This document shows, piece after piece, positions 3,199 through 62,873 of a DNA stretch of 64,000 nt. Source of the stretch: Eledone cirrhosa. Taxonomy: Eukaryota. The first letter of the stretch is position 1. Each line of letters starts with the position of its first letter. The notes below the pieces were generated by a model, which was given only the letters and a program-made list of their open reading frames with translations, made no database searches and was not told the origin of the DNA. Location: NCBI GenBank assembly GCA_964016885.1, contig OZ024740.1, forward strand, positions 261,764,001 to 261,828,000, in the 5' to 3' direction. Both the position numbers and the translations under genes were made by a program.

Positions 3199-3328
<130 letters not shown>

Positions 3329-3339
3329 TATATATATTG

Positions 3340-27265: not shown

Positions 27266-28088
27266 TATACGAAGTGGTATAGCGAAATATGTTTCTCGGG
27301 CGTTTTAATGATAAGCAGCCCTCTGCCATAAAACGTCAAAGCGTTTTCCTCCGTTTCTATCAGGAGAAAGCTACCACTTTAATTGTTTTTTAAATTAAAT
27401 TAAAACCTTCCAACTTAATTTTATGTAAGGATCATATATTGAATTCTTAAGTTATTACCCCAGTAATGAAATAATTAATAATTTTAATAAACCCCTCATA
27501 TGTTTCCAGTAATTAATTGAAATGGATTATACTTCATTAGAATTACAGTCACGAAAAACACGTTATATTTAAAGAGTAAGAGAAAATATAAACAGTTTTA
27601 TGATAATAATTGGTTGGTTCACTAAGTGTAATAATGTATAAAAATTAAAACCACAACAAAGAACCAAACAGACAAACAAAGAATTAATCTAGTCCAAGCA
27701 ACAACAACAACAACCACAAAAACACTAGAAAATTTATTTTAAAAAAAATATTTAAATGACAAAAACAACCAGTCAGTTTTTTATCACAAGTACATGCTTT
27801 AGAAATCCTAACACTTCAAGGCATACAGAACACACATCCTGCTCAAAACATTCAATAATATAACAATGGTAATAAAAACATCAGTAACAATCTTTTAAAG
27901 AGAAAAAAAAACCTAAAAGAAAAATACAATGAAAGAAAATCGACTCCATCCATATTGTAAAAAATAGCGAAAAGAAGAAGCAAATAATCACCAAGACAAA
28001 AGCTAAACGAAATTACAGAGAACAGACAAACCCAAAACAGCCTAATAATAATAATAATAATAATGATAATAATAATAATAATAATAAT

Positions 28089-31000
28089 GTTTTCTTTATT
28101 AACCACAAGGGTTTACATAAAGTAGACATTAAGGACAGTACAGGACAATACAGGACGGTACAAATGTGCATTTCTGCGTGTAAAAAAACAAGAAACAGAG
28201 GATGTAATAATAGAACAATGAAAAAAATTCCCCAATAGGGGGGAAACTTCCGAGGGACATTCGTGGAGAAAGCCTATTAAAAAGCCACAGTGACCCTGAC
28301 CACTAGGGCAAGTGCCCTCTCCCAGTTTTCCACCTTTAATTTACAGACACATACTCAGAGTAGGACCATTCACTCAAGCTAATTCTTGCCTCTCTCACCC
28401 ATCTTTCAACAAAATGCTGGGAAGAGAGGACTTCCCTTTCTACCCTGATTTTCCTTTTCAAGTGAAATTTGAAAAAGTTAATCAGGGCATCACCGAAGAG
28501 GTAAGTGCTCGTCTTCAGCCCTTTCAAACGTGTCCACCATACTATCTCTTTCGCCATGGCCACCAGACAGATAAAAACCGCCTGCCCTTCCCGGCTAAAG
28601 AAAGAGGGCGGGGCAATCCTCACGATGGACTCAGCTGATAGCTAGATCCATCCTACACGCGACAGCAGGTGTTCGACATAAACCCACAAGTCAGCAATGC
28701 TCGGACACTGGACGAGTGCGTGCAGGACGATTTCGTCGCCCTGCGCACATCTCGGACATGCCCGACTGACGGCACCTCCATGCCTGTAGAGTTTATCCCG
28801 AATTGGCAAAGCTCCTCGGTAGCACTGCCAGGCCAGGGATTTCTGGAAGTTGTCCATAGGCCCCGGCCCGAAAGTTCTTCCGAAGAGATTGGCTAGTTAA
28901 TTTTCGTCGACGCCTAGAGTTTCCCCAAGTATGTCATCGCTATTCCCCTCCACTAATGCTCTATAGAACGCCAAGGTGGAGTTTCCACCGATCACATTGC
29001 CCGATTGGTCGATGGCTGTGAGCGCCTGAAGACATTCCAGTCTCCAAGCGCTCCCTCTCGGTCTTCGCTTGACCCAGGACTGTAGCTCCGTCAAGGAGAC
29101 GAGCTGCGGAAAGACGCGTCTAGCAAACGGCGACCACACCTGATCACCGTCGAAGAAGAGGTGGAGATGTCGTAGCCTGAGCGCGTGTCTGCGCATCATC
29201 AGCCACGGCATTCCCAGCCCTCCACGTAGCGGGTGTTGACAGCAGATGGACCGCCTGACCATCGGAGCGCGTCCCTTCCACAAAAAGCGAAAGAGCAAAC
29301 GCTCCAGCGCAGTCAGGCGGGGCTTGGGACAAGGTACGACGGTCAGGCGGTAGTAGATGACGGACGCGATATACGCGTTAGCCACCTCCGCTCGACCTTT
29401 CAGGGATAGCTTCCTCTCGGCCCATTTCTGGGTGAGAGAAGCCACCCTGCTCGTCGCCTCGTCCCAGTTTTTGTCCGTCTGGAGGTCCGGACCGAAGCAG
29501 ACCTCGAGCAATTTAACCGGTCCGTCCGTCCAGCGCCCGACTTCGCTGTTGGACGGCATGGACCTGCCTCTCCAGATGCCGAGCTGCAGGCCCACTAACT
29601 TTTCCTGGTTGATCATTGCTCCTGTCACCGCTTCGTATTCTCTTAGTGTAGGACCGATCGCCTCGATGTGTTTGGCGTTCGACACCACTACGGTGACATC
29701 GTCCGCATACGCTGACACGGATCTTCCGCATCCTAGTTCGCGCGGGACCCCCCTCAACGTCTCCAGTTTGTGCAGTAATGGCTCGAGAGTCAATACGTAC
29801 AAGAGTGACGAGAGGGGACATCCTTGGTGGACCGAGCGCATGATGTTGAACGGTTCCGAAAGGTGACTGTTCACTCTCACCACAGAGCAGATGTCGCTGT
29901 GCATGGCAGCGATCCAGCATCTGAAGACAGGCCCAAAGCCAGCCGCCCTCAGGACTGCCGCTAGGTAACGATGGTCGACCCTATTGAAAGCTTTCGACTG
30001 ATCTAAATTGATCAAGGACCCACCCGTGAGAGGTTCCCTAGCTACCCTCTCTACGATGTATCGCATGAGGTGGAGGTTGTCGTGGATGGATCTGTCGGGA
30101 ATGGCGCATGTCTGCGCCTCTCCCATCAGACCACCAACGACAAGTGCTAACCTCTTTGCTAGCACCTTGGCCAAAATCTTGAACGTGTTTAGCAGAGTTA
30201 TGGGCCTAAAATTATCTATGTTATCCCCCTTGTTCGGATCCTTTCTCAGCAGCGCCACAGCTCCTCGGCTCACAGAGCTGGGAATTCTCCCGTTCTGTTG
30301 CCAGTTGCAGTAGACGTCCGCTAAGAGGCCTCCGAACAAGTCTGGCATCTGTACGTAAAGTTTATAGGGCAGACCATCCAAACCAGGCGATTTACCCCTT
30401 GTGCAGCCAGTCATTGCCTCCAGTACTTCAGCGGCTGTTATCGGCTTTTCGCAACACTCCGCCTCAGTGGCCGAGAGCCGCGGCAGTCCGTCGAGGTAGA
30501 CACTAAAGTCCATCCCTCGATCCGGCCCGCCGCTGCCCCCGAACAGCTGAGAGAAGTGTCGCTGAAAAGCTTTACACATTTGCCCGGGATCGAGTAGCAT
30601 TCGCCCGTCGTGGTACACCAAAGACCGGATCGTGGATTTGTTGCCACGACGCGCCTCCGCCACTCGGGCCCATTGAACGGTTCGTCCCCTCGTGTCTGAG
30701 AGCACGCACCCTAGCTCTGACAACGCAGCCTTCGTGCTTTGCATTGAAGAATTGGTCAAGGGCCAATTTCGCCGCAAGTACGTCGGTCGCGATGCCTTTG
30801 CTAAGCGCCTCGTCTAATTTTCTAACTAATTCTCCCTCTGCTCTATGTTTCTCTATTGCTAAAGCCTTACTAAACCTAATGGACTCTATTCTAATCGCTC
30901 TATTCAGAGCAAACCACCACGTGTTGTTAACGATGGCTCTCGTCAACGCCCGCTTAACTAGTTCGCTAATCCGGTCTCTGTAGGCCTTGCGTGCTGGTAG

Positions 31001-33763
31001 GGCGCGTTTAGCTTCCAGTAGCCGGGTCCTCGTCTATGAAGCCTATCTAAGTCAAGCACACAGATCACGAATTTGTGGTCCGTGTAGCTAACTATCTTGA
31101 ATTGTGGACAGCCTATGCTAGACCTATCTATTTCCCTACAAAATACTCTATCTAGATATGATCTGGATGACCCTATGCGATTTGTCCAATTCCACATTGG
31201 CACATTCGGGAAATCCAATCGGTACCCGTCGGACAGTTCAAAACGCCTGAGCAGGTGGATGAGGCTCTTGCACCCTCCTCCCCTATCCGCTAATCCCACA
31301 CATTCCCAGCGTGCATCTAAGATGCCGTTCCAGTCGCCCACTAACACTGAAAAGTGGGACGTTCCAAGAAAGATCTCCAGACGCCGGAAGAAATCAGGCT
31401 GCCCTGCTCCTGTCGGGGCATAGACGGCCACTAGCCTGAAAGCTTGCCCGTCTCCGCTGGTCACGTCCAGCACCACCAACTTACTCTCTGGGTCAAGGAA
31501 GATGGCCCGTATGGCGAGATCCAAACCTCTCCGAAAAAGCTCAGCAACTCCTCCCCCCGATCCCGGACGGCTGGGAGATGCGTACACATCGTAGCCGCTG
31601 AAGATCGGTGCGAAGGCCCGTGCTTCGGTGATTCTGGTCTCGCTGATGTCCACTACATCTATGTTTAGTGACCTGAGGTCGTTGAGCAGGTGGCCCTGCT
31701 TTCATGACGACCCCAAGCCACGCGCATTTATGCTGCCTATTCTGAGTGAGGTCATGTTGAAATGGAGTGGAAAAGATGGGAAAGAACACTTACCTTACTT
31801 CTCGTAGAGGAAGGATGGTTTCTCCATCCTTTTCACTGCTTCTGGCCTCCTCCGGAAGGATGTCCTTATAAATCCTCCTGGAGAGTGCTTGTCGGAAGTC
31901 TCTGGGGAATTTTTGTTTTATTGTCGTGTACGTTTTCTGTGTGATGCGAGTGATTTGTATGTGTGGAGGTGGTGTCAACATTTGGGTTGTTGTGTAGTCT
32001 TTTTCTGTGATGCTGGTGTTGTGTTGGATGTAGTGTAATAATTGGTTGTTCAAATTTATTGCTGTAGTGTGTATAGTTTTGGTTGTTTTGTTTTGTTTGC
32101 GTTTGTTGTGGGTTTGTTTCTGTTACGCTTTTTGGTGACTTTTGTGGTGTTGGTGATGGTGGTGTTGGAGTTAATGATGGTGATGGTGTTGGTGTTTGTG
32201 GTGATGGGGTTGGTGATTTGGTGTGGATGGTGGCATAGCTGTCCTAAATTTTTTGTTTGATAGTTTATTTGTTTCCCTCTGTATTTTGTTTTCGGAGGGG
32301 GAAGGAAGAGGATTTTTTCTTTTTTGGTTTCTTTTTCTTTTTTTCATTTTTCCTGATTTTGCTACTGTTGCTGGGGTTGTTGCTGTTACAGTTGCTTCTG
32401 CTATTGCTGCTACAGTTGTTGCTGCCATTTCTGCTGCTGGTGGTGTTGATGGTTGAGTCACTGGGGTGGGTAAGAGAGGTGGCCTCAACCTTTTAGCCTG
32501 AGGGCAGAAAGCCCTTAGGTGGGTTCCTTCACCATAAACGAGACACCTAGGCCTTCTGCCCTCGACGATTACGGTGAGGTGGCTGCCGCCAGTGAGGTCT
32601 ATTACCTCTGGGAACTCCTCAATGCTTTTTTGGTCTGCTTGGATCAGGAGCTCCATCCCAGATCCGGACCAGTTCTCCTGCTTTTCTTTCGCTATTTTGA
32701 TTATCTTGGTGTTGGCCTCGATGCCGGCTAGGACGGCAGCCATTAGCCAGGGAATTTCGATGGCCGGTGGAACGTGGGTCACCCTGATCTTCACGAGTCT
32801 CTGGCCACAAGAGCTTGGGACGAGTGTGAAGTCGTCACTTCTTAATGGGGCCATGGAGTATTCTTTGGCCTCCTGTGGTTTTCCAAAGAACACGTCCACG
32901 GTTCCATATTTCTGCCCACGTCTGATGTGGGGTTTTTTTGCCCACACATGTCCCAAGCTTTTTTGATTTGGGACTCGGATGCCCGTTCCACTCGGCGCGA
33001 TTTTATGTTAATCGTCCGATAAGATACGGTGCATAGGCGCCGATGCTCCATTTTATTAGGTGTGTGTGGGGGTGGGTGGGTGAGGCTGTCCCTGTACCCA
33101 TCTTTCTTTACCATTCCCTTGGCTTCATCTAATCCCTCCTGAGTTACCTGGATTGCTTCGCACTTTTTTGCTACTCTGGCAAAAGACAGGGTGGTTTTCT
33201 TTTTCTCATTGTTGTTGTTGCTGTTGTTGTTATCGTTATTTTTGTTATTGTTATTTTTAGTTTCAGTTGTGGTGGTGGCGGTGGCGTCAGTGGTGTTCGA
33301 TGTGGAAGAGTCCATTCTGGGGAATCCATTTCGATGTCACGAGATAATTTATTTTTTTCTTTTGTTTCTGCTGTCGCTGTGGTGGTGGTGGTGGTGGCGG
33401 CTTCAACATCTGCAGTCATTGGTAATAGCGGGAAATGAATGTCTGCATGAGTCAAATTTAAATTATTGCTACTGCATATATTTTTAGTGTTGGCAAACGT
33501 AGTAATATTTACGATGGTGGTGTCGGGGTGAGGTGTTAGTTTGTGAGGAAGGTGTGACTGTGAGTCGTCCATGATTTTTTTCATAGAAATTTTTGTTTGA
33601 TAATTATAAAAGTTTAAATTTTGAGTGTCCTTTTCTGAAAGCAAATTTTGTGACCTTATAAATAGTTAACAACAAAAATGTTCCATAAATGGCAATTTTA
33701 AACAAACGAAAACAACAAACCTTTGCGGAGCTCAAGATGATACGATTTCCTACGTAGGTCGCC
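28089..33763 (-). mobile_element. Full-length Tx1-like (L1 group) non-LTR retrotransposon, copy 1, decayed; flanked by (TTA)n on its sense strand
   Basis: ORF1 pieces 33644-31790. ORF2 pieces 31756-28336 give the APE (INARGL, VGDWN, SYLDR, TDHK), RT (QGCPLS, YADD) and C-terminal CPRC..H..C. AATAAA before the tail; 5' end GGCGACCTACGTAGG. Confidence 0.92.
28897..30777 (-). pseudogene. Tx1-like ORF2 RT fragment (copy 1)
   Basis: KSPGLDG, FRPITLLN, LDQSKAF, QGCPLS, YADD; stops and frameshifts on both sides. Confidence 0.9.
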
Positions 33764-33802
<39 letters not shown>

Positions 33803-33803
<1 letters not shown>

Positions 33804-36800
33804 GAAGAAGACGCACGAGGTGGCGGAGGTCATGAAATCGCTCCCGTAAGTTTTGAATTTTTAACATATTTAAATCATTTGTGAAATAACAACTCTTAGT
33901 ACAAATGCTACGTAAAGCACCCGGCTTGAGTCCCAAAAAATTCGGACCCAAAATATATTGTTATAAGGCTCAAATATTCAAATATTCAACTTTGTATTGT
34001 ACACTGTATATCCAAAAAAGAAAATGGCTATAAATGGAAGAAGAACGCCCCCCCCCTTCTCTCCTCTGTCTACACTATATAGAACAGCCAAACTCAACAA
34101 CACCAGAAACTAGATACACCACCCACCTCATCACCTGTGTACACTAAACACAACAGCCAGATAACGGCATTTTCACCACCACCGCTCACTACTGCCATCA
34201 TTACCACCACTATTCCATCACCGCCGCCACCACCCCTTCACTCCTTCACTGCTACCACCGCTACAACACCATCACTACAGTAATACGACCACATCACCAC
34301 CACCACTGCCTCGGTATCGACATCACCACCACCACTGTCTCAGTATCGCTACCGCCGCCAGTCTCCCACTTCTCCCTGCTGGCTGCTGCCACCACATTAT
34401 AGAATTCCTACTACTAAAAAAGAGGAAGGCATCAAATATATAGATAGACTCAAAAAAAAAAGAAAAAACAAACAACAAAACCAAAGCAGCACAGCAACAA
34501 CAGCAAAAAACGAGAAAAACAAACAGAGAAAAACAAAAACAAAAAAAACAAAAAACGTAAAGAAAATAAGAATGAAGAGAGAAGCAGGCGGACGGACAGA
34601 GAAGAGGGGGAAAAAACTAAAACTAAAAAAACAAAAACTAAGTCAGACATTCGAACACTACATTACAATGAAACTTATGCTTATTCATTTTTGGGGCCCT
34701 TTCTGCCTGTGTGTTTGTTTGTTTATGTGTGTTCGTATACAGCGTGGTGATAATGCCACACAAGGGCCAAGTGGAACGGCGAATCCACAGATGGCAATGT
34801 AACCATACATTCGCCAATCCTCGATAAGAGTGTTTAAATATCGAACATAAACAGTTCGAATAACGGTGAAATGGAGACTAGAACGTCATGTGACAGACTC
34901 TCACCCAACAGGTGCCCCCTGGCTCAGCAGCAGGAACCTGACTGTCAACCAAATACTGCTGATGTTGGAGGAAGAAGAAGAAGGAAAGGGGCCAGAACCA
35001 ACTGGACGAAAGAATTGAATAGAACTGTTATGCAATGTTACCTGAAAAGTAACCCCAAGGAGAGGGGCTACAGGAGACGGATGCATAACATCTGGAACGA
35101 GATTGGTCTATTTAAATTAGATGAACAAAAATTGGCCGGGCAGGCTCGGGTAATAAGAACTAATGGGTGGATAAGCGAGCTGGAACTGGAGGAACTGAGC
35201 AGAGAGAATGGCTTGGAGATGGCGGGTGTAGTATGCCAGACAAGCGAGCCAGTGGGAAATGAAGGTGAAGAGGTCCTGAGAACGGAGGAACCACCCGAAG
35301 CAGACAATGATCTGAATACTGAGATAAATAATACCTGGAACAGAGATACGGCCACTGAGGAGATGAATGTTGACGGGCTAGGGCAAGATTCGGTTGACAT
35401 CCTAAATTTAGTGGTAGATGAATTGAACAATAATCGTGGGAGACCTATGAACCTAAGATTTGTAGACAGGAAAAAGTTAAAAGAAACAACAGCTAAGGTA
35501 AACAAAGTCATCCCATACCTTGAGGCGAGGAGCCTTCACCAGTGCAACAATATCCTCAAAGCAACAGCAAATACGGTGAGGAAACTACTTGGTATAAAAG
35601 CGAGAGGAAACAACAGACAAGAAAGAGCAGAGCCGTGGTGGAAGAAACGACTGAGTGGTCAAATCGGGGAAATGAGAAATGACATAGGAAAGCTTGAGTC
35701 ACTACTGAATGGGACACTAAAAAACATAGGCACTAAAAATAGACTGGAAATAAAGTACAAAACTAGGAGGAAAAAGCTAAATATTATCATAGAGGAACTG
35801 AAGCAACGCATTGTAGCAAAGAGTGCAAAAATCAAGTGATACGAGAACAGAGTCAGTCAGTATAAACAGAACCGCAGATGCTGTTTGGACAGCTTGAGGG
35901 GAAAGAAAGAGGCAACGACTTGATCCCTGGGGCGGAGCAAACTAAAACATTCTGGAGAGGAATATGGGAGCAGGATGTTAGACATAATGTCCAGGCAGGG
36001 TGGATTGAGACAGCACAGAGGGAGATCGGTGAGCAGGCACACCAACAAACTGATTTGAGTATCACAGTTGAAACTCTTAAGGGGCAGGCCAAAAAACTAA
36101 CCAACTGGAAATCACCAGGCCCAGATGGTGTGCAGGGGTATTGGATTAAAAATTTAACATCCCTCCACCCGAAGCTGACGGCCATGTTCAATGACTGCTT
36201 GGTGTCGGGTGAGGTGCCAGAGTGGTTGACAAAAGGTACCACAGTTCTGATAATGAAAGACCGAATCAAGGGTAATGATGTTACCAACTATAGACCTATC
36301 ACATGTCTGTCCGTAATGTGGAAACTGTTGACGAGCATTGTGTCTGAGGAAATCTACCATCACCTCCACACAAACAACTTGTTACCGGACGAACAGACGA
36401 AGTCTCGTGGTACAAAGGACCAGTTACTTATTGATAAGATGGTAATGGGGAATTGCAGGAGGAGACACACTGATCTTGCCATGGGATGGATAGACTACAG
36501 AAAGGCATTTGACATGGTGCCTCATTCTTGGATCACCAAAAGCCTGGAGATCTTCAGGGTGGCAGATAACATCAGACAGTTGCTGGGCAGGAGTATGCGG
36601 TCCTGGGAGACAGAGTTGACATCAACTGGAGTATCCTTGGGAAGCGTGAAGATCAAGAGAGGTATCTTCCAGGGAGATAGCCTGTCCCCTCTGTTGTTTG
36701 TCCTTGCCCTGATGCCCTTGACCATTATGCTGCGAAAAGTGAGAGCAGGATACAAGTTGGGAAAGGGAGAGCTTACTATCAATCACCTCCTCTTCATGGA

Positions 36801-38308
36801 CGATCTTAAGCTCTTCGGGAAAAGTGAGAAGGAGTTGGATGTGCTTGTTGACACTGTCCGTATTTTCAGCAGTGATATATGTGTATGCAGTTTGGTATTA
36901 GTAAATGTGGAGTCATTGTGATGAGGAGGGGTAGGTTGAGCAGAAGTAACGGGATCCAGATATCAACAGGTGAGATGATAAAGGAAATTGACTCTGAGGA
37001 AGGATACAAGTATTTGGGCGTTCTGGAGGCTGATGGCATAAAGAACAAAAAAATGAAGGAATTGTGAAGAACTGAATACATTCGGAGAGTAAGGAGCGTA
37101 TTGAAGTCACATCTGAACAGCAGAAATGCCATAAGCGCAGTAAATTCCCGAGCTGTGTCTATTATTAGGTACAGTGCGGGAATTCTGAGATGGAATGTTG
37201 CTGAACAAAAAGAAATGGATAGGAAGACTAGGAAGCTATTGACTATCGACAACATGTTCCACAAGAGGAGTGATGTCGATAGACTCTACCTAAGGAGATC
37301 TGAGGGTGGAAGAGGTCTTATCAGCATAGAGAACTGTGTTCAGATGGAGAAAAACAACCTATACAAATACGTGACCTATAGTAAGGAGCCAATGCTCAGA
37401 ACTGTACTGAAGGAGGGGACAGTAGGCCAGGGGATGTCCAAGGAGGAAATAACATCAAGGAGGATGAGCAGCCTTAAGGGAAAATCCCTTCCTAGTACCT
37501 TCTTTGAGAAAACTGAATTTAGAGATCCACAGACATGGAACTGGTTGAGAAGAGGAGACCTCAACAAGGCTACAGAAGGAATGCTAATGGCTGCGCAGGA
37601 GCAGGCCCTCAAAACGAAGTGGTTGAAGCACCATATTTACAAGGAGGAGGCTAGCCCACTGTGCAGGATCTGTGGAGAGAGAGAGGAGACTGTGGCTCAC
37701 ATTGTGTCCGAGTGTAAACACCTAGCCCAGACCCACTATAAGGGCTGGAGACACGATGTGATGGGCAGGGTGATCCACTGGCACCTGTGCAAAGTAAACA
37801 ATTTACCACATTCTGAGAAATGGTATGAGCATAGGCCAGAGGCGGTGATGGAGAACAATCAGGTGAAGGTGCTGTGGGATTTTAGGATACAGACGGACAA
37901 AAAACTGGAACACAATAGACCTGACCTGGTGGTTGTGGACAAAGAAAAAAGATCGTGTCTGATTGTGGATGTGGCCTGCCCGTTCGACACGAGAGTGCAA
38001 GAGAAGGAGAGGGAGAAAATTAACCGATACCAGGACCTAAAGTGGGAGGTGAAAAGGATTTGGAACTGCCATGAAGTCAAAGTGATCCCGATTGTCATAG
38101 GCGCACTGGGGACTATCTCCAAAAGTTTCCAGGGATGGTTAAAGAAAATCGGCCCCTTCACGCTTTTTGGAACGCTTCAAAAGGCATGCTTGCTGGGAAC
38201 AGCAAGAACCCTACGATACGTCCTGAATATCTGAGGCTGCAGGTAGTGGCTTGATATTCATTCCAACGGACTTTCCAGTTAACCAACATCAATGACTGAG
38301 ATTCAAGG
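33803..38308 (+). mobile_element. Full-length R4/Dong-like RLE non-LTR retrotransposon family A, copy 1 (ORF disrupted)
   Basis: ~1.07 kb 5'UTR. ORF pieces 34871-38234 give Myb-like RTNWTKELN, RT (QGDSLSP, FMDD), CRIC..H..C, RHD, RPD..D..K. (AAT)n on both sides. Confidence 0.93.
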
Positions 38309-38317
38309 AATAACAAC

Positions 38318-38372
<55 letters not shown>

Positions 38373-39150
38373 TTTTCTTTATTAACCACAAGGGTTCACA
38401 TAAAGTAGACATTAAGGACAGTACAGGACAATACAGGACGGTACAAAAGGGCATTTCTGCGTGTAAAAAAACAGAGGTTGAAATAAAATAACAAAGAAAA
38501 ATTCTCCAATAGGGGGGAGACTTCCAAGGGACATTTGTGGAGAAAGCCCATTAAAAGACCACAGTGGCCCTGACCACCAGGGCAAGTGCCCTCTCCCAGT
38601 TTTCCACCTTTAATTTACAGACACATACTCAGAGAAGGCCCATTCATTCGGGCCATACTTGCTTCTCTCACCCATCTTTCAACAAAATGCTGGGAAGAGA
38701 GCACTTCCCTCTCTACCCTGATTTTCCTTTTCAAATGAAATTTGAAAAAGTTAATCAGGGCATCACCGAAGAGGTAAGTGCTCGTCTTCAGCCCTTTCAA
38801 ACGTGTCCACCATACTATCTCTTTCGCCATGGCCACCAGACAGATAAAAACTGCCTGCCCTTCCAGGCTAAAGGAAGGGGCGGGGCAATCCCCACGATGG
38901 ACTCAGCTGATAGCTGGATCCGTCCTACACGTGACAGCAGGTGTTCGACATAAACCCACAAGTCAGCAATGCTCGGACACTGGACGAGTGCGTGCAGGAC
39001 GGTTTCGTCGCCCTGCGCGCATCTCGGACATGCCCGGCTGACGGCACCTCCATGCCTGTAGAGTTTATCCCGAACTGGCAAAGCTCCTCGATAGCACTGC
39101 CAGGCCAGGGATTTCTGGAAGTTGTCCATAGGCCCCGGCCCGAAAGTCCT

Positions 39151-48298: not shown

Positions 48299-48349
<51 letters not shown>

Positions 48350-48350
48350 A

Positions 48351-51522: not shown

Positions 51523-53384
51523 CAGTTAGGACTGATGTTAAAATTTTATACATTGTGGTCAAGCAGGTTATCGGTCTGTAATTTTTGGGATTGTTTGTTT
51601 CATCATTCTTCGGTAGCAGGAATGTAATGCCGTTAACTAGCCATGATGGTATCTTTTCTGGCTCCTTAACTATTTCATTGTAAAGTTGGGCTAACAGCTC
51701 ATGAGACTCTGTGAAGGCATTTATCCAAAAGTTTTGTATTTTGTCTTTTCCTGGGGATTTCCATTTGCTGGTTTTTCTTAGAGCCAAGCGCAGCTGTTCA
51801 ACTGTTATATTTTCCCATGTTTGTTCTTCAAGGTGAGCTGTTTCTTTCATTTGTCTGTCTATCCATGGGGCATGTATGTTATGAACTTTTTCTTCGGCCC
51901 AGATCTTTTCCCAGAATTCTTGCACTTCCTCCTTGGGTGGTATTGATTTAGCAGTTATTGTTGACTTACCAATTTTTCTGTAGAAGTTTCTTTGGTTGTT
52001 TTTGAACATATTATTGTCCTTATAGAATCTAGATCGTTTTTCAAAGCGCCTTATACGAGCAGCTTTGGCCGACACTTTTTGCTTGATTGTTTCTATCAGC
52101 ATGTCTATGTCACATGTTGATCTTATACTGTACTTTTTTTTCAATTTTCTAAGTTTAGTTTGTTTAACATGTTCACCTACTTTATAGTTTGTTAACATTT
52201 CTATGTCAGATCGGAGAAGGTTTATTTGGCGATTGATGTTATCTTGCCAAGTAGATTTCTTGTGGGAATTCCTTTGTTTTTTCATCTTCGCTCCACATAA
52301 GTGAGTGGTGACTTTAGCCGATGCATAATAGAGATGATTTAAGTCAGTAATGTTTAGTTTGTTTGTGATGATAATGTTTTTGAGAATTATGTTAGTCTTG
52401 TGTATTATCTTTTGGTTCTGTTTGGAGTTCTGGATCTTAGGGAGGGTGTCTCGTTCCCCCATGTCAGATTCTTTCATTTTCATCCATTCGATCATAATTT
52501 CATCCTTCAAGTTGGCAAGTTCATTCTCATTCATTTCTTTATCATTTACGATCTCATTATTTTCATTTGGAGTTTCATCCTGAGCATGCACTCCCTCCAC
52601 TTTTTCGCTCCTTTCTTTAATTTGTTCTGTTGCCAGTGATTCCGCCCCAACCCTGGGATTCGAAGTGTTACAGTTTACCTCGTTTTCACTGACACATGCT
52701 TCATTTTCCCTTCGCTGACTTTGTGCTACTAGCTTGATCTGATCAATTTCTATATCAGTTAGTAACTTTTTTCTTACAATATTTCTTCGTATATTGGCTA
52801 GTTTGTTACTATCAATATAGCCTCTGTTTTCGGGGTGTTTCTTTTTCCAGTTGATATATGTTTGTTCTGTATTCAATGTATTTGATGGGTAGTACATGGC
52901 AGTGTAGAAAGCCTCAAGGACTTCTTTATTATCTTCCCTTGACCATTTTTCTCTCTTTTTCTTTGGATTTCTTGGTGGTGAGCATGGAGGGCCAACAGTA
53001 GGAGTATTCCGGTTATGGGAGGTCTCCAGCTCCGAAGTGATGGGAAGGTTTGAACCATTAGCTGATTTTTCGACCCCAGTCTGGTTCCTCTCTGAGGGAC
53101 GCGGCCCTTTTTTACCCGGGTGACGGCCGATCCGGTATGAGATTTCATCATTAGACATCTACTTTATTTTGTCGCGTTTTATCCTTATCCGCCAAGGGGT
53201 AATCATTTCGTGTTACCACTTCTAGAACGAGTGTCAACCAAGACTAGAGGGGTCGTTCTCCCCTAGAGACATGGCTATTCCCCGCCGGCCGCCATCCCGG
53301 TATTTCTTGGTCACGGGGTTTTCTTTTTGTTGTTTTTTTTAAAATTGTTATTATCATGAGTGGTTCCTTAATGTGAGCATTGCG
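51518..53384 (-). mobile_element. Family B copy 2 (5' half, 3'-truncated), nearly identical to 44283-46150
   Basis: ORF 53158 to ~51520 matches the 1216 aa protein except two visible residues (S/L, I/M). Confidence 0.95.
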
Positions 53385-53488
53385 TGGCTTAAGAATGAAA
53401 TTATTAATAATTGTCTCCACTCCAGGCACAAGGCCAGCAATCACCCAGTGCATTACAATGATATAATATACTTTTTGTTGTAGTTGGC

Positions 53489-53543
<55 letters not shown>

Positions 53544-56500
53544 GGCGACCTACGTAGGAAATCGTATTATCGTGAGCTCCGCAAAGGTTTGTTATTTCCG
53601 TTTGTTTAAAAATTGCCATGTATGGAAAATTTTATTGTAAACTGTTTATAAGCACACATACATTGTTTTCCGAAAAGGACACCCAAAAAGATTGGGGCCT
53701 TGTGCCCAAAAGAGTTCACGGTAACTCAAGAAGATTTAGAAAATGCCAAACAAATGGTAAAGAAAGATGGGTACAGGGTCAGCCTCCCCCCCCCCCCACC
53801 TAATAAAATGGAGCATCGGCGCCTGTGCACCGTGTCGTATAGAACAATAAATGTAAAATCGCGCCGAGTGGAACGGGCATCCGAGTCCCAAATCCAAAAA
53901 GCTTTGGGACATGTGTGGGCAAGAAAAACCCACATCAGACGTGGGCAAAAGTATGGAACCGTGGATGTGTTCTTTGAAACACCAGAGGAGGCTAGAGAAC
54001 ACTCCATGGCCCCATTAAAAAGTGACGACTTCACACTCGTCCCAAGCTATTGTGGCCAGAGACTCGTAAAGATCAGGGTGACCCACGTTCCACCGGCCAT
54101 CGAAATTCCCTGGCTAATAGCGGCTGTCATCGCCGGCATCGAGGCCAACACGAAAATAATAACAATAGCAAAAGAAAAGCAGGAAAACTGGTCCGGATCT
54201 GGGATGGAGCTCCTGATCCAAGCGGACCAAAAAAGCATTGAGGAGATCCCAGAGGTAATAGACCTCACTGACGGCAGCCACCTCACGGTAATTGTCGAGG
54301 GCAGAAGACCTAGGTGTGTCGTTTGTGGTGAAGGAACCCACCTAAGGGCTTTCTGCCCTCAGGCTAAAAGGTTGAGGCCACCTCTCCTACCCACCCCAGT
54401 GACACAACCATCAACACCACCAGTAGCAGAGATGGCAGCAACACCTGTAGCAGCAACAACAGAAGCAACTATAACAGCAACAACCCCAGCAACAGTAGCA
54501 AAACCAACACCACTACCACCACCAGCAAGACCAACACCACCACCACCCAACGCTTCAGAACTAGCACCAGCGCCTACACCTTCCACCACACCACAACCAA
54601 AACTAACGGCTGTGGAGGATTTTCCACTCCCCGGCCTATCACAACTGGAGACAGATTGTAGCGACGAGGAGTGGGAAACGATATTCGGAAAAAAAAAAGA
54701 AACCAAAAAAGAAAAAATTCTCTTCCTTCCCCCTCCAAAAACAAAATACAGAGGGAAACAAATAAACTAAGAAACAAAAAAGTTAGGACAGATATGCCAC
54801 CATCCACACCAGCATCACCAACCCCATCAACCCAAACACCAACACCATCACCATCATTAACTCCAACACCACCATCACCTACACCACAAAAGTCACCAAA
54901 GTGCGAAACAGAAACAAACCCACAACAAACGCAAACAAAACAAAACAACCAAAACGATACACACTACACAGCATTAAATTTGAACAACAAGCAATTATTA
55001 CACTACATCCAACACAACACCAGCATCACAGAAAAAGACTACACAACAACCCCAAAATTCACACCACCTCCACACATACAAATCACTCGCATCACACAGA
55101 AAACGTACATGACACTAAAACAAAAATTCCCCAAAGACATCGGAGACTTCCGACAAGCACTCTCCAGGAGGATTTATAAGGACATCCTTCCTGAGGAGGC
55201 CACAAGCAGTGAAAAGGATGGAAAAGCCGTCCTTCCCCTACGAGAAGTAAGGTAAGTGGTCTTTCCCATCTTTTCCACTCCTTTTCAACATGACCTCACT
55301 CAGAATAGGCAGCATAAATGCGCGTGGCTTGGGGTCGTCATGGAAGCAGGGCCACCTGCTCAACGACCTCAGGTCACTAAACATAGATGTAGTGGCCATC
55401 AGCGAGACCAGAATCTCCGAAGCACAGGCTTTCGCACCGATCTTCGGCGGCTACGATGTGTACGCATCTCCCAGCCGTCCGGGATCGGGGGGAGGAGTTG
55501 CTGTGCTTTTTCGGAGAGGTTTGGATCTTGCCATACGGGCCATCTTCCTGGACCCAGAAGGTAAGTTGGTGGTGCTGGACGTGACCAGCGGAGACGGGCA
55601 AGCTTTCAGGTTAGTGGCCGTCTATGCCCCGACAGGAGCAGGGCGGCCTGATTTCTTCCGGCGTATGGAGACCTTTCTTGGAACGTCCCGCTCTTTAGTG
55701 TTAGTGGGCGACTGGAACGGGATCTTAGATGCACGCTGGGATTGTGTGGGATTAGTGGATAGGGAAGGAGGGTGCAAGAGTCTCACCAACCTGCTCAGAC
55801 GTTTTGAACTGTCTGACAGGTACCGAATGGATTTCCCGAATGTACCAATGTGGACTTGGACAAATCGCATAGGGTCATCCAGATCATATCTAGATAGAGT
55901 ATTTTGTAGGGAAATAGATAGGTCTAGCATAGGCTGTCCACAATTCAAGATAGTCAGCTACACGGACCACAAATTCGTGATCTGTGTGCTTGACTTAGAT
56001 AGGCTTCATAGACGAGGACCCGGCTACTGGAAGCTAAACGCGTCCTTACCAGCGCGCAAGGCCTACAGAGACCGGATTAGCGAACTAGTTAAGCGGGCGT
56101 TGACGGGGGCCATCGTCAACAACAAGTGGTGGTTTGCTCTGAAAAGAGCAATTAGAATAGAGTACATTAGGTTTAGTAAGACTTTAGCAATAGAGAAAAA
56201 TAGAGCAGAGGGAGAATTAGTTAGAAAATTAGATGAGGCGCTTAGCAAAGGCATCGCGACCGACGTGCTTGCGGCGAAATTGGCCCTTGACCAATTCTTC
56301 AATGCAAAGCACGAAGGCTGCGTTGTCAGAGCTAGGGTGCGTGCTCTCAGACACGAGGGGACGAAAGCCGTTCAATGGGCCCGAGTGGCGGAGGCGCGTC
56401 GTGGCAACAAAGCCACGATCCGGTCTTTGGTGGACCACGACGGGCGCATGCTACTCGATCCCGGGCAAATGTGTGAAGCTTTTCAGCGACACTTCGCGCA

Positions 56501-56570
56501 ACTGTTCGGGGGCAGTGGCGGGCCGGATCGAGGGATGGACTTTAGTGTCTACCTCGACGGACTGCCGCGG
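53544..56570 (+). mobile_element. Tx1-like copy 3: intact 5' end, ~0.5 kb deletion at the start of ORF1, 3'-truncated in ORF2
   Basis: GGCGACCTACGTAGG after (TTA)n; ORF1 53700-55255; ORF2 from ATG 55290 with an uninterrupted APE domain. Confidence 0.93.
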
Positions 56571-59500
56571 TATCGGTTAATTTTCTCCCTCTCCTTCTCT
56601 TGCACTCTCGTGTCGAACGGGCAGGCCACATCCACAATCAGACACGATCTTTTTTCCTTGTTCACAACCACCAGGTCAGGTCTATTGTGTTCCAGTTTTT
56701 TGTCCGTCTGTATCCTAAAATCCCACAGCACCTTCACCTGATTGTTCTCCATCACCGCCTCCGGCCTATGCTCATACCGTTTCTCAGAATGTGGTAAATT
56801 GTTTACTTTGCACAGGTGCCAGTGGATCACCCTGCCCATCACATCGTGTCTCCAGCCCTTATAGTGGGTCTGGGCTAGGTGTTTACACTCGGACACAATG
56901 TGAGCCACAGTCTCCTCTCTCTCTCCACAGATCCTGCACAGTGGGCTAGCCTCCTCCTTGTAAATATGGTGCTTCAACCACTTCGTTTTGAGGGCCTGCT
57001 CCTGCGCAGTCATTATCATTCCTTCTGTAGCCTTTTTGAGGTCTCCTCTTCTCAACCAGTTCCATGTCTGTGGATCTCAAAATTCAGTTTTCTCAAAGAA
57101 GGTACTATGAAGGGATTTTCCCTTAAGGCTGCTCTTCCTCCTTGATGTTATTTCCTCCTTGGACATCCCCTGGCCTACTGTCCCCTCCTTCAGTACAGTT
57201 CTGAGCATTGGCTCCTTACTATAGGTCACGTATTTGTATAGGTTGTTTTTCTCCATCTGAACACAGTCCTCTATGCTGATAAGACCTCTTCCACCCTCAG
57301 ATCTCCTTAGGTAGAGTCTATCGACATCACTCCTCTTGTGGAACATGTTGTAGATAGTCAATAGCTTCCTAGTCTTCCTATCCATTTCTTTTTGTTCAGC
57401 AACATTCCATCTCAGAATTCCCGCACTGTACCTAATAATAGACACAGCTCGGGAATTTACTGCGCTTATGGCATTTCTGCTGTTCAGATGTGACTTCAAT
57501 ACGCTCCTTACTCTCCGAATGTATTCAGTTCTTAACAATTCCTTCATTTTTTTGTTCTTTATGCCATCAGCCTCCAGAACGCCCAAATACTTGTATCCTT
57601 CCTCAGAGTCAATTTCCTTTATCATCTCACCTGTTGGTATATGGATCCCGTTACTTCTGCTCAACCTACCCCTCTTCATCACAATGACTCCACATTTACC
57701 AATACCAAACTGCATACATATATCACTGCTGAAAATACGGACAGTGTCAACAAGCACATCCAACTCCTTCTCACTTTTCCCGAAGAGCTTAAGATCGTCC
57801 ATGAAGAGGAGGTGATTGATAGTAAGCTCTCCCCTTCCCAACTTGTATCCTGCTCTCACTTTTCGCAGCATAATGGTCAAGGGCATCAGGGCAAGGACAA
57901 ACAACAGAGGGGACAGGCTATCTCCCTGGAAGATACCTCTCTTGATCTTCACGCTTCCCAAGGATACTCCAGTTGATGTCAACTCTGTCTCCCAGGACCC
58001 CATACTCCTGCCTAGCAACTGTCTGATGTTATCTGCCACCCTGAAGATCTCCAGGCTTTTGGTGATCCAGGAATGAGGCACCATGTCAAATGCCTTTCTG
58101 TAGTCTATCCATCCCATGGCAAGATCAGTGTGTCTCCTCCTGCAATTCCCCATTACCATCTTATCAATAAGCAACTGGTCCTTTGTACCACGTGACTTCT
58201 TTCGGCATCCTTTCTGTTCGTCCGGTAACTAGTTGTTTGTGTGGAGGTGATGGTAGATTTCCTCAGACACAATGCTCGTCAACAGTTTCCACATTACGGA
58301 CAGACATGTGATAGGTCTATAGTTGGTAACATCATTACCCTTGATTCGGTCTTTCATTATCAGAACTGTGGTACCTTTTGTCAACCACTCTGGCACCTCA
58401 CCCGACACCAAGCAGTCATTGAACATGGCCGTCAGCTTCGGGTGGAGGTATGTTAAATGTTTAATCCAATACCCCTGCACACCATCTGGGCCTGGTGATT
58501 TCCAGTTGGTTAGTTTTTTGGCCTGCCCCTTAAGAGTTTCAACTGTGATACTCAAATCAGTTTGTTGCTGTGCCTGCTCACCGATCTCCCTCTGTACTGT
58601 CTCAATCCACCCTGCCTGGGCATTGTGTCTAACATCCTGCTCCCATATTCCTCTCCAGAATGTTTTAGTTTGTTCCTCCCCAGGGATCAAGTTGTTGCCT
58701 CTTTCTTTCCCCTCAAGCTGTCCAAACAGCATCTTCTGGTTGTTGTCGAACATGCGGTTCTGTTTATACTGACTGACTCTGTTCTCGTATCGCCTGATTT
58801 TTGCACTCTTTGCTACAATGCGTTGCTTCAATTCCTCTATGATAATATTTAGCTTTTTACTCCTAGTTTTGTATTTTATTTCCAGTCTATTTTTAGTGCC
58901 TATGTTTTTTAGTGTCCCATTCAGTAGTGACTCAAGCTTTCCTATGTCATTTCTCATTTCCCCGATTTGCCCACTCAGTCGCTTCTTCCACCACGGCTCT
59001 GCTCTTTCTTGTCTGTTGTTTCCTCTCGCTTTTATACCAAGTAGTTCCCTCACCGTATTTGCTGTTGCTTTGAGGATATTGTTGCACTGGTGAAGGCTCC
59101 TCGCCTCAAGGTATGGGATGACTTTGTTTACCTTAGCTGTTGTTTCTTTTAACTTTTTCCTGTCTACAAATCTTAGGTTCATAGGTCTCCCACTATCATT
59201 GTTCAATTCATCTACCACTAAATTTAGGATGTCAACCGAATCTTGTCCTAGCCCGTCAGCATTCATCTCCTCAGTGGCCGTATCTCTGTTCCAGGTATTA
59301 TTTATCTCAGTATTCAGATCATTGTCTGCTTCGGGTGGTTCCTCCGTTCTCAGGACCTCTTCACCTTCATTTTCCACTGGCTCGCTTGTCTGGCATACTA
59401 CACCCGCCATCTCCAAGCCATTCTCTCTGCTCAGTTCCTCCAGTTCCAGCTCGCTTATCCACCCATTAGTTCTTATTACCCGAGCCTGCCCGTCCAATTT

Positions 59501-60831
59501 TTGTTCATCTAATTTAAATAAACCAATCTCGTTCCAGATGTTATGCATCCGTCTCCTGTAGCCCCTCTCCTTGGGGTTACTTTTCAGGTAGCATTGCATA
59601 ACAGTTCTATTCAATTCTTTCGTCCAGTTGGTTCTGGCCCCTTTCCTTCTTCTTCTTCCTCCAACATCAGCAGTATTTGGTTGACAGTCAGGTTCCTGCT
59701 GCTGAGCCAGAGGGCACCTGTTGGGTGAGAGTCTGTCACATGACGTTCTAGTCTCCATTTCACCGTTATTCGAACTGTTTATGTTCGATATTTAAACACT
59801 CTTATCGAGGATTGGCGAATGTATAGTTACATAGCCATCTGTGGATCCGCCATCCCACTTGGCCCTTGTGTGGCATTATCACCACGCTGTATACGAACAC
59901 ACATAAACAAACAAACACACAGGCAGAAAGGGCCCCAAAAATGAATAAGCATAAGTTTCATTGTAATGTAGTGTTCGAATGTCTGACTTAGTTTTTGTTT
60001 TTTAAGTTTTACTTTCCCACCCCTCTTCTCTGTCCGTCCGCCTGCTTCTCTCTTCATTCTTATTTTCTTTACGTTTTGGGGGTTTCTTTTTTTGTTTTTG
60101 TTTTTCTCTGTTTGTTTTTCTCGTTTTTGCTGTTGTTGCTGTGCTGCTTTGGTTTTGTTGTTTGTTTTTTCTTTTTTCTTTTGAGTCTATCTATATATTT
60201 TGATGCCTTCCTCTTTGTTAGTAGTAGGAATTCTATAATGTGGAAGTAGCAGCCAGCAGGGAGAAGTGGGAGACTGGCGGCGGTAGCGATACTGAGACAG
60301 TGGTGGTGGTGATGTCGATACCGTGGCAGTGGTGGCGGTGATGCGACCGTATTACTGTAGTGATGGTGCTGTAGCGGTGGCAGCAGCAGTGAAGGAGTCA
60401 AGGGGTGGTGGCGGCGGTGATGGGATAGTGGTGGTAATGATGGCCGTAGTGAGCGGTGGCGGTGAAGGTGAAAATGCTGTTGTGTTTAGTGTACACAGAT
60501 GATGGGGTGGGTGGTGTATCTAGTTTCTGGTGTTGGTGAGTTCGCTGTCCTATATAGTGTAGCCAGAGGAGAGGAGGGGGGGGGGTTCTTCTTCTTCCAT
60601 TTATAGCCATTTTTTTTTGGATATACAGTGTACAATACAAAGTTGAATATTTGAATATTTGAGCCTTATAACAATATATTTTGGGTCCGAATTTTTTTGG
60701 GGCTCAAGCCGGGTGCTTTACGTAGCATTTGTACTAAGAGTTGTTATTTCACAAATGATTTAAATATGTTAAAAATTCAAAACTTACGGGAGCGATTTCA
60801 TGACCTCCGTCACCTCGTGCGTCTTCTTCCC
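56569..60831 (-). mobile_element. Family A copy 3: full 5' end, two in-frame nonsense codons (58229, 57077), last ~280 nt missing
   Basis: ORFs 58229-59758, 57077-58174 and 56549-57055 are in the same frame; 5' end GGGAAGAAGACGCAC at 60831. Confidence 0.93.
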
Positions 60832-60875
<44 letters not shown>

Positions 60876-60887
60876 GTTATTGTTATT

Positions 60888-62389
60888 CCTTGAATCTCAG
60901 TCATTGATGTTGGTTAACTGGAAAGTCCGTTGGATTGAATATCAAGCCACTACCTGCAGCCTCAGATATTCAGGACGTATCGGAGGGTTCTTGCCGTTCC
61001 AAGCAAGCATGCCTTTTGAAGCGTTCCAAAAAGCGTGAAGGGGCCGATTTTCTTTAACCATCCCTGGAAACCTTTGGAGATAGTCCCCAGTGCGCCTATG
61101 ACAATCGGGATCACTTTGACTTCATGGCAGTTCCAAATCCTTTTCACCTCCCACTTTAGGTCCTGGTATCGGTTAATTTTCTCCCTCTCCTTCTCTTGCA
61201 CTCTCGTGTCGAACGGGCAGGCCACATCCACAATCAGGCACGATCTTTTTTCTTTGTCCACAACCACCAGGTCAGGTCTATTGTGTTCCAGTTTTTTGTC
61301 CGTCTGTATCCTAAAATCCCACAGCACCTTCACCTGACTGTTCTCCATCACCGCCTCTGGCCTATGCTCATACCATTTCTCAGAATGTGGTAGATTGTTT
61401 ACTTTGCACAGGTGCCAGTGGATCACCCTGCCCATCACATCGTGTCTCCAGCCCTTATAGTGGGTCTGGGCTAGGTGTTTACACTCGGACACAATGTGAG
61501 CCACAGTCTCCTCTCTCTCTCCACAGATCCTGCACAGTGGGCTAGCCTCCTCCTTGTAGATATGGTGCTTCAACCACTTCGTTTTGAGGGCCTGCTCCTG
61601 CGCAGCCATTAGCATTCCTTCTGTAGCCTTTTTGAGGTCTCCTCTTCTCAACCAGTTCCATGTCTGTGGATCTCTAAATTCAGTTTTCTCAAAGAAGGTA
61701 CTATGAAGGGATTTTCCCTTAAGGCTGCTCTTCCTCCTTGATGTTATTTCCTCCTTGGGTATCCCCTGGCCTACTCTCCCCTCCTTCAGTACAGCTCTGA
61801 GCATTGGCTCCTTACTATAGGTCACGTATTTGTATAGGTTGTTTTTCTCCATCTGAACACAGTCCTCTATGCTGATAAGACCTCTTCCACCCTCAGATCT
61901 CCTTAGGTAGAGTCTATCGACATCACTCCTCTTGTGGAACATGTTGTAGATAGTCAATAGCTTCCTAGTCTTCCTATCCATTTCTTTTTGTTCAGCAACA
62001 TTCCATCTCAGAATTCCCGCACTGTACCTAATAATAGACACAGCTCGGGAATTTACTGCGCTTATGGCATTTCTGCTGTTCAGATGTGACTTCAATACGC
62101 TCCTTACTCTCCGAATGTATTCAGTTCTTAACAATTCCTTCATTTTTTTGTTCTTTATGCCATCAGCCTCCAGAACGCCCAAATACTTGTATCCTTCCTC
62201 AGAGTCAATTTCCTTTATCATCTCACCTGTTGGTATCTGGATCCCGTTACTTCTGCTCAACCTACCCCTCCTCATCACAATGACTCCACATTTACCAATA
62301 CCAAACTGCATACATATATCACTGCTGAAAATACGGACAGTGTCAACAAGCACATCCAACTCCTTCTCACTTTTCCCGAAGAGCTTAAG

Positions 62390-62390
<1 letters not shown>
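60888..62390 (-). mobile_element. Family A copy 4, 5'-truncated (1.5 kb), open ORF to the natural stop
   Basis: ORF 60962-62359 ends LRYVLNI; (TTA)n on both sides. Confidence 0.93.
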
Positions 62391-62446
<56 letters not shown>

Positions 62447-62447
<1 letters not shown>

Positions 62448-62837
62448 TTTGAGTCTCAGTCATTGATGTTAGTTAACTGGAAAGTTTGTTGAAATGAATA
62501 TGGAGGCACTACCTGCAGCCTCAGATATTCAGGACGTATCGGAGGGTTCTTGCTGTTCCCAGCAAGCATGACTTTTGAAGCGTTCCAAAAAGCGTGAAGG
62601 GGCCGATTTTCTTTAACCATCCCTGGAAACTTTTTGAGATAATACCTAGTGCGCCTATGACAATCGGGATCACTTTGACTTCATGGCAGTTCCAAATCCT
62701 TTTTACCTCCCACTTTAAGTCCTGGTATCGGTTAATTTTCTCCCTCTCCTTCTCTTGCACTCTCGTGTCGAATGGGCAGGCCACATCCACAATCAGGCAC
62801 GATCTTTTTTCTTTGTCCACAACCACCAGGTCAGGTC

Positions 62838-62841
<4 letters not shown>
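62447..62841 (-). mobile_element. Family A copy 5, 5'-truncated (0.4 kb)
   Basis: ORF 62521-62826 encodes the endonuclease C-terminus; (TTA)n on both sides. Confidence 0.92.

Positions 62842-62873
<32 letters not shown>

Follow-up and report, generated by a model that had tools for sequence, protein, structure and literature searches.

Among the long interspersed nuclear elements (LINEs) that insert into simple repeats, Dong of Bombyx mori, DongAg, and DongBg, the last from the snail Biomphalaria glabrata, target TAA microsatellites (PMC3812793), and R4 belongs to the clades characterized by a restriction-like endonuclease (PMC4640811). Microsatellites are likewise the targets of several Tx1 elements, namely (TC)n for Kibi, (TTC)n for Koshi and (TTCC)n/(TTTC)n for the crocodilian Tx1, and SINEU, a short interspersed nuclear element (SINE), is mobilised by Tx1-Mar (PMC4494074). 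The subject of this analysis is a stretch of 64,000 nucleotides of the octopod Eledone cirrhosa (hereafter the window; assembly GCA_964016885.1, contig OZ024740.1, positions 261,764,001 to 261,828,000 of the forward strand, numbered here from its first letter) in which two LINE families that are likely Dong/R4-like (A and B) and one that is likely Tx1-like (T), the latter endowed with an apurinic/apyrimidinic (AP) endonuclease, occupy the same (TAA)n repeat in opposite orientations.

Three other systems have to be borne in mind. TRAS and SART of Bombyx form arrays within the telomeric repeats, where they lie in opposite orientations (PMC10088271); Keno, a Tx1 element with an AP endonuclease, and Utopia, an element with a restriction-like nuclease, converge on the U2 snRNA genes (PMC4640811); and SaTar elements of guayule and rice build non-nested multimeric arrays of unrelated elements via microsatellite targeting (PMC5907723). 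As to octopuses, Dong-R4 and L1-Tx1 have, according to repeat surveys, expanded and been active in recent times, with 1129 and 421 recent insertions in Octopus vulgaris (PMC13282606, PMC8967140), Dong-R4 being the largest recently active LINE group of this species (PMC13282606); "TAA" has no match in the main text of these two surveys.

We regard it as highly probable that the mixed, non-nested LINE arrays described below arise through target-primed reverse transcription initiated by nicks in opposite strands of one repeat, the target site being copied at both ends of each insertion.

Architecture of the array in the window

Self-BLAST, open reading frames (ORFs) and reading of the sequence resolved ten LINE copies of families A, B and T that fill positions 28089–62839, in keeping with the first-pass annotation of the window, which had counted at least ten. 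They follow one another in the order T1(−), A1(+), T2(−), B1(+), A3(+) and, beyond a polarity flip at 51518, B2(−), T3(+), A2(−), A4(−) and A5(−). All intact junctions consist of (TAA)n/(TTA)n tracts of 8–18 units and, on either side of 51518, the sense strand reads TAA in every A and B copy and TTA in every T copy. Two junctions contain no repeat and display instead a microhomology of 5 nt (at 51518) and of 2 nt (at 56569).

At its left end the array begins with a (TAA)n tract (28043–28088, +) that constitutes the 3′ flank of T1 (28089–33765, −), a full-length Tx1-like LINE with an ORF1 and an ORF2 specifying AP endonuclease and reverse transcriptase (RT), whose frames are broken. (TAA)12 (33766–33802, +) separates the 5′ ends of T1 and A1, a full-length Dong/R4-like LINE with RT and restriction-like nuclease, also with broken frames (33803–38310, +), and an A-type tail followed by (TAA)17 (38311–38371, +) lies between the 3′ ends of A1 and T2. 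The latter (38372–44254, −) is a full-length Tx1-like LINE whose ORF2 retains an open stretch of 862 amino acids (39154–41739) and whose 3′ stem-loop, with a CUUGU loop and AATAAA, is found at about 38378–38395. The 5′ ends of T2 and B1 are separated by (TAA)8 (44255–44279, +). B1 (44280–48300, +), a 5′-truncated Dong/R4-like LINE, contains an intact frame of 1216 amino acids (44508–48155) with RT, CCHC and a restriction-like nuclease motif, and is followed by (TAA)15 (48301–48347, +) and by A3 (48348–51522, +), a member of a diverged A subfamily, 89% identical to A1, whose 3′ part has been lost at the polarity flip.

At the flip itself (51518–51522, no strand assigned) the 3′ ends of both A3 and B2 are gone. 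B2 (51518–53490, −), a B copy truncated at both its 5′ and 3′ ends, is separated by (TAA)17 (53491–53543, −) from the 5′ end of T3 (53544–56570, +), the 5′ half of a T element that has an internal deletion in the ORF1 region and an AP endonuclease frame at 55251–56738. The 2-nt microhomology joins T3 to A2 (56569–60831, −), an A copy without its last ~280 nt. (TAA)14 (60832–60875, −) connects the 5′ end of A2 with the 3′ end of A4 (60876–62390, −), a 5′-truncated A copy separated by (TAA)18 (62391–62446, −) from A5 (62447–62839, −), which is short and likewise 5′-truncated, and (TAA)11 (62840–62873, −) closes the array on the right.

The earlier statement that, apart from the two junctions without repeat and a stretch of 105 nt at 53385–53490, the copies are separated by (TAA)n alone is confirmed, the two exceptional junctions included, save that the 105-nt stretch is no spacer. 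A genome search with it gave 1094 first-look candidates, and 40 of the 40 that were scored are 99–100% identical; at 29 other loci its equivalent has more element sequence upstream, and in many copies the B 5′ untranslated region (UTR) continues upstream of it for ~770–820 nt, up to a head common to A. The 105-nt stretch is therefore B 5′ UTR, and B2 directly adjoins its TTA tract.

A chimeric assembly of the 35-kb array, which its strong repetitiveness and inverted arm might suggest, is hardly credible: the copies differ from each other by 0.2–11% and have distinct ends, the same architecture, flip included, recurs elsewhere (locus L010), and a local mis-join would leave the genome-wide result that follows unchanged.

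Target and polarity of dispersed copies

The genome was searched six times with queries of 120 nt taken from element ends or UTR, which gave 180 loci, 175 of them outside the window. Considering the five true ends, the repeat is found on the predicted strand at 144 of 146 dispersed element ends (29/30 for A 5′, 28/29 for A 3′, 29/29 for B 3′ and 58/58 for the T ends) and on the opposite strand at none. Beyond the tract, a LINE is the direct neighbour of 100 of these ends and all such neighbours except one (99/100) have the predicted orientation, while the seven neighbours that are SINEs all display the polarity of T. A count centred on 230 tracts gave the expected orientation for 100/100 T junctions and 236/246 A/B junctions; five of the ten exceptions are short matches corresponding to SINE ends, the others being located at compound or flipped tracts. 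Thus, the strict opposite polarity of A/B and T, which had been proposed from the window, holds both there and at the dispersed ends.

A repeat found 3′ of a LINE might be a tail written by the element itself, so that the 5′-truncated copies carry particular weight. Upstream of truncated T copies the repeat is TTA in 11 and TAA in none, with 6 showing neither and 7 being internal deletions; for A the corresponding figures are 26 with TAA, 16 with neither and 9 internal deletions, and for B 38 with TAA, 1 with both, 10 with neither and 14 internal deletions. In no truncated copy of A, B or T is the opposite repeat present alone. Since a flank upstream of a truncated copy cannot derive from its RNA, the repeat is the target and not only a tail. 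The proposal that a TAA repeat is the common target of A, B and T is hence upheld by the dispersed ends and by the truncated copies alike, and neither among the latter nor at the 146 ends are the 5′ flanks predominantly non-TAA or the orientations random.

These data also bear on the possibility that the elements themselves wrote the repeats, as 3′ tails, and that segmental duplication of a few units, in tandem or inverted, produced the arrays in place of repeated targeted insertion. Such an origin would be in line with the right arm of the array in the window (B2-T3-A2), which mirrors the left one (A1-T2-B1), and with the identity of B1 and B2 (99.8%), which exceeds that of the best of eight dispersed copies (99.3%). 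However, A1 and A2 are less similar to each other (96.5%) than to the best dispersed copy (97.1%), T2 and T3 (98.2%) are about as similar as dispersed copies are (98.1%), and B2 has 105 nt of 5′ UTR more than B1; on account of these identities and of the longer 5′ end of B2, the right arm was rejected as an inverted segmental duplicate of the left. Furthermore, truncation points vary from copy to copy, the upstream repeat is retained by 5′-truncated copies and the neighbours differ from one array to another, so that this explanation is largely refuted and very improbable. The high identity of B1 and B2 is possibly the result of local gene conversion.

Some junctions depart from the common pattern. 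Head-to-head A/T junctions, in which both elements are 5′-truncated and TAA is scarce or missing, occur at L044, L133, L145, L122 and L169, candidate explanations being recurrent deletions within arrays or deletions coupled to insertion. Compound tracts that switch from TAA to TTA are seen at L111, L158, L175, L229 and L143, and polarity flips like the one at 51518 may have arisen from tracts of this kind. Finally, one poly(A)-ended sequence adjoins the tract at four loci (L031, L038, L051 and L084); it represents a further repeat family, in the tail region of which the elements land.

Nucleases, insertion signature and a SINE with a T-like 3′ end

Domain searches detected RT in A, B and T and an AP endonuclease in T only. 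In the 1216-residue frame of B1, RVT_1 is the sole domain match, and an alignment with R2 proteins extends over residues 449–1162, thus including RT, CCHC and the nuclease region; alignments also place a CCHC and a restriction-like motif RPD...D...K, read by eye, at the C-terminus of A and B. The two families have the same layout, are 29–37% identical in protein sequence and possess similar 5′ heads (about 330–580 nt at 75–91% nucleotide identity; window 33803–34400, L094, L106 and other B loci), a resemblance that suggests a recent exchange of 5′ UTRs. Their likely assignment as Dong/R4-like relies on architecture and target, the comparison comprising no named Dong or R4: none of the 14 homologues of A and B carries either name and their PDB matches are R2 structures only.

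The protein of T matches Exo_endo_phos and RVT_1, its best PDB matches are L1 endonucleases, and its close homologues carry PF03372, PF00078 and PF13966, so that T has the layout of the Tx1 clade, with an ORF1 and an ORF2 that combines an L1-type AP endonuclease, RT and a C-terminal zinc motif. The closest named homologue is a protein of Argonauta hians with 69% identity, which, like the AT-rich microsatellite background of the window, fits an octopod. A quick RT tree of 100 rows unites T (support 99) with the Argonauta protein, with one unnamed protein and with four diverged families of the same genome, all of which lie on the minus strand of TAA. This group lies inside a larger one of 54 rows (SH-aLRT, i.e., approximate likelihood-ratio support, of 92, unstarred and internally open) that also includes Tx1-like elements from metagenomes flanked by 5S rRNA (L315, L322), which we take to be Mutsu-like, 5S being the target of Mutsu. 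Other metagenome Tx1-like elements of the 54-row group are Keno-like, being flanked by U2 snRNA (L302, L308, L312, L313 and L319), the target of Keno (PMC4494074). T is accordingly regarded as likely Tx1-like, the tree having no named Tx1 or L1 row among its members. None of the 80 metagenome loci related to T (24–42% identity) has a (TTA)n run of at least 5 units, the contigs being short and the relatives distant, so that there is no evidence for this target beyond the lineage of T itself. A subfamily of T, whose ORF2 is ~95% identical to that of T2, has a different 5′ part of 2.3 kb with a diverged ORF1 and an unchanged TTA target; it was encountered in the neighbourhood of L002 (L241–L244) and at L006, L010, L016, L018, L020, L022 and L024. 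With regard to the 5′ ends, an Rfam search over positions 27000–64000 gave low-complexity chance matches only, with no ribozyme or RNA-gene head, and the 5′ ends of A, A3 and T fold no better than shuffled sequences; a ribozyme like that of hepatitis delta virus was thus not found.

The insertion signature of T can be read where the target is imperfect. Here the element is flanked by target-site duplications of 19 nt (L139), 18 nt with one mismatch (L143), 28 nt (L038) and 13 nt (L032), all starting with ATTA and, in the first three cases, preceded by C. Because the duplications start in this way, T has no tail of its own, and the ATT run found 3′ of it is duplicated target. These duplications of 13–28 nt also substantiate the earlier suggestion that each insertion leaves fresh target at both of its ends.

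The L1 endonuclease nicks DNA at a pyrimidine–purine step. The duplications indicate that the AP endonuclease of T likely nicks the TAA strand at 5′-TAAT^R-3′ (Y^ATTA(T) in the sense orientation of T). A and B read TAA, and the priming must hence come from the TTA strand, which their restriction-like nuclease would likely nick, as proposed for Dong, at a position that a pure repeat does not resolve. Each insertion would split one tract into two, long tracts being presumably favoured, and such renewal combined with a preference for long tracts would make the arrays grow by a rich-get-richer process that entails no nesting. Subsequent deletions at microhomologies, such as those observed at the two junctions without repeat, may trim the arrays and fix the polarity flips, and the machinery of T likely mobilises in addition a SINE of ~190 bp at short ATTA(T) sites across the genome.

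Target-primed insertion into an asymmetric repeat imposes one orientation on each family; strict polarity is therefore expected and opposite polarity is one of two outcomes. This consideration weakens the idea that the opposite orientations represent an evolved partition by which the elements avoid competition, or a benefit to the host that would silence them through Piwi-interacting RNAs (piRNAs) or siRNAs produced by dispersed arrays. Throughout the arrays the 5′ ends of T face those of A/B and the 3′ ends face 3′ ends, a geometry suited to divergent and convergent transcription, and at least four diverged T families retain the polarity of T. Nonetheless, two lineages would be found in opposite orientation half the time by chance once polarity is set by the mechanism; A/B and T draw on one and the same set of duplex tracts, to which every insertion adds, so that neither kind faces a scarcity that could be partitioned; and a preference for long tracts matches the clustering observed. 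We therefore consider partition or host benefit unlikely, and the niche divided by strand that the first-pass annotation had envisaged is not borne out, since orientation is fixed by the mechanism, the two kinds abut in the same duplex sites and no benefit is apparent.

The SINE just mentioned lies between tracts, and either end of it shows TTA in the sense orientation. It gave 89 matches, diverged fragments included, in 600 kb, and most of its copies lie outside long tracts. ATTA is found after the 3′ end of 68 of 72 copies, and unique exact duplications of 10–22 nt were identified for 27 of 86 copies, all of them starting with NTTA (ATTA in 26) and 23 being preceded by C or T. The last ~25 nt, the only part in which the two are alike, match T in having an invariant CCTTGTG core, GAAA and equal spacing to ATTA. 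The stem that encloses the CUUGU loop is AACC/GGUU in T, GCC/GGC in the diverged T families and GGC/GCC in the SINE, three of the four pairs being changed on both sides, with a covariation score (0.485) reached in 3 of 500 shuffles and above all six slid controls. AATAAA is present at this stem-loop in T and absent from the SINE rows. The head of the SINE has A- and B-box-like motifs recognized by eye and, for the one copy searched, no Rfam tRNA match. Octopus SINEs already published are OK, OR1 and OR2, to one of which it may correspond.

We predict that the SINE is likely a passenger of T, a partnership that is supported rather than proven, given that the stem is short (3–4 bp) and the 12 aligned rows are few, related and hand-picked. 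Two further observations detract from it: duplications were called in 47 of 72 SINE copies against a high shuffled background (mean 24, maximum 31), and the 60-nt 3′ end of T folds no better than shuffled sequences (z −0.23). The earlier inventory of elements was thus correct as to A, B and T and had missed both the diverged T families and this SINE with the polarity and a 3′ end like that of T. Within the window, the CCTTGTG motif, with a short run resembling TTA after it, occurs in the B 5′ UTR stretch at 53385–53490 and in the T2 5′ UTR at 44067–44110, and these look like fossil SINE or T ends captured in a UTR.

Clustering of the arrays and relation to known systems

Neighbourhoods of 40 kb centred on 15 other full-length T copies (about every second of 29 matches, a size-biased sample) contain mixed arrays in 14 cases, with spans of 12–30 kb as judged by the element library, six of which are still open where the neighbourhood ends; the array at L010 has a polarity flip like that of the window. 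As a baseline, 80 evenly spaced stretches of 10 kb (800 kb in all) were taken from the 3.0-Gb genome. Young A, B and T sequence amounts to 31.4 of the 800 kb (3.9%, with a bootstrap range of 1.1–7.4%) and is confined to six stretches. In view of the comparable arrays around 14 of 15 T copies and in 6 of 80 stretches, the locus in the window is not special, and the suggestion that it might be a particular transposon trap or a piRNA-cluster-like place found no support.

Random tracts of at least 5 units touch an A, B or T LINE in 12 of 32 cases, those of at least 9 units in 7 of 10. LINE neighbours at element ends (100/146) are therefore in excess with respect to the former (p = 0.002) and not with respect to the latter (p = 1.0), so that the expectation of clustering beyond random (TAA)n occupancy holds against tracts in general and fails against long ones. 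The clustering is genuine, and renewal of the target together with a preference for long tracts can explain it, with the qualification that the baseline is small and a survival bias possible.

The latter possibility, namely that the arrays reflect survival of insertions in gene-poor or silent chromatin, with purifying selection elsewhere, more than a preference of the nucleases for long tracts, has a minor but appreciable likelihood. It would explain why only 12 of the 32 random tracts of at least 5 units touch these LINEs and why three tracts of 9–17 units are free. On the other hand, tracts next to a LINE exceed free ones in length (at least 9 units in 7/12 vs 3/20, p = 0.018), a difference that slippage after insertion could also produce. 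In any event, survival bears on clustering only and leaves targeting and polarity untouched.

Several points weigh against the mechanism that we favour, i.e., target-primed insertion from opposite strands of one repeat. The loci are the best-scoring matches and are skewed toward young copies and contigs C1–C4, and the nick sites of T and A/B are predictions read from junctions. When internal deletions are excluded, truncated 5′ ends have no repeat in 6/17 cases for T, 16/42 for A and 10/49 for B, and a long (GAA)n replaces (TAA)n before several A/B 5′ junctions of both full-length and truncated copies (L125, L131, L068, L119 and the neighbourhoods of L020 and L026), which makes (GAA)n a candidate second target or a candidate product of slippage on a GAAGAAG head. 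Because of these ends and of the (GAA)n cases, specificity must be regarded as strong and not absolute. Moreover, the long-tract baseline consists of 10 tracts only, and no bridge over the flip at 51518 is seen among the matches listed for three contig sets and one Hi-C run, an uninformative outcome.

Two side observations may be recorded. At L386 (465–3695) a unit of 310 bp is repeated in tandem; the repeat includes an inversion and is similar to part of the A3 5′ UTR. Outside the array, the window contains an RT-bearing LINE fragment, R4-like by eye, as a near-identical inverted pair (905–2350, −, and 4910–7157, +) that encloses a Penelope-like RT piece (3150–3983) and has no long TAA flanks.

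A broader interpretation, which we put forward tentatively and hold to be possible though less than probable, is that an octopod-wide Tx1 lineage, whose L1-type nuclease is re-tuned to TAAT^R, together with Dong-like elements acting on the other strand, has converted TAA microsatellites into self-renewing polarised LINE arrays amounting to several percent of a genome of 3 Gb, that the Tx1 enzyme drives the dominant octopus SINE, and that every array is, by its head-to-head and tail-to-tail arrangement, a ready source of dual-strand small RNAs. In practical terms, what appears in octopods as transposon "hotspots", as TAA microsatellite markers or as gaps in assemblies may largely correspond to such arrays. 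The intact frame of B1 would be suitable for an ordinary nuclease assay.

Each ingredient of the system has a precedent. A and B are like Dong in having a TAA target and a single ORF with RT and a C-terminal restriction-like nuclease, and differ from it in being two families that have a common 5′ head and are mixed with an AP-endonuclease element. Like Kibi, Koshi and the crocodilian Tx1, T is an AP-endonuclease LINE specific for a microsatellite and is accompanied by a SINE with the same target; its own target, (TTA)n or Y^ATTA(T), is absent among those given in the corresponding text (PMC4494074) and is common to an element with a restriction-like nuclease. Compared to the pair SINEU/Tx1-Mar, the SINE described here resembles the LINE in its 3′ stem-loop and is present in far larger numbers.

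The similarity with TRAS and SART consists in two LINE families that occupy one simple repeat in opposite orientations and form arrays; those elements, however, are both R1-clade, AP-endonuclease and telomeric, whereas here the nucleases are unrelated and the arrays interstitial and dispersed. Keno and Utopia provide the precedent for an AP-endonuclease and a restriction-like element on one target, as T with A/B, with the difference that they use the same site and 3′ flank in a low-copy gene, and not the opposite strands of a microsatellite that has a high copy number and renews itself. SaTar elements similarly form non-nested arrays by targeting microsatellites; they are small non-autonomous Mutator-like DNA transposons for which the text of PMC5907723 gives no orientation rule, whereas in the present case autonomous LINEs form arrays of 10–35+ kb with strict polarity.

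The accessible texts of PMC3747384, PMC3124438, PMC4758252 and PMC4824008 contain nothing on a (TTA)n target, and a full-text literature search, to which supplements and Repbase, a frequent place of record for such targets, are external, revealed no (TTA)n-targeting Tx1, no mixed Dong/Tx1 arrays and no Tx1 partner for octopus SINEs. Within the literature searched, no report was therefore found of the combination, of a Tx1-like lineage that targets (TTA)n or of the SINE pairing. The list of Tx1 targets thereby gains TTA/Y^ATTAT, and a natural pair of unrelated nucleases that read opposite strands of one trinucleotide repeat is added to the known systems. While the octopus literature, in the texts available, gives Dong-R4 and L1-Tx1 as counts without targets, a rule is offered here for their site, orientation and clustering that covers roughly 4% (1–7%) of the genome, and a candidate partner LINE is named for a SINE found about once per 7 kb; the value of the finding lies in this genome-wide rule and in the likely SINE partner more than in the single array.

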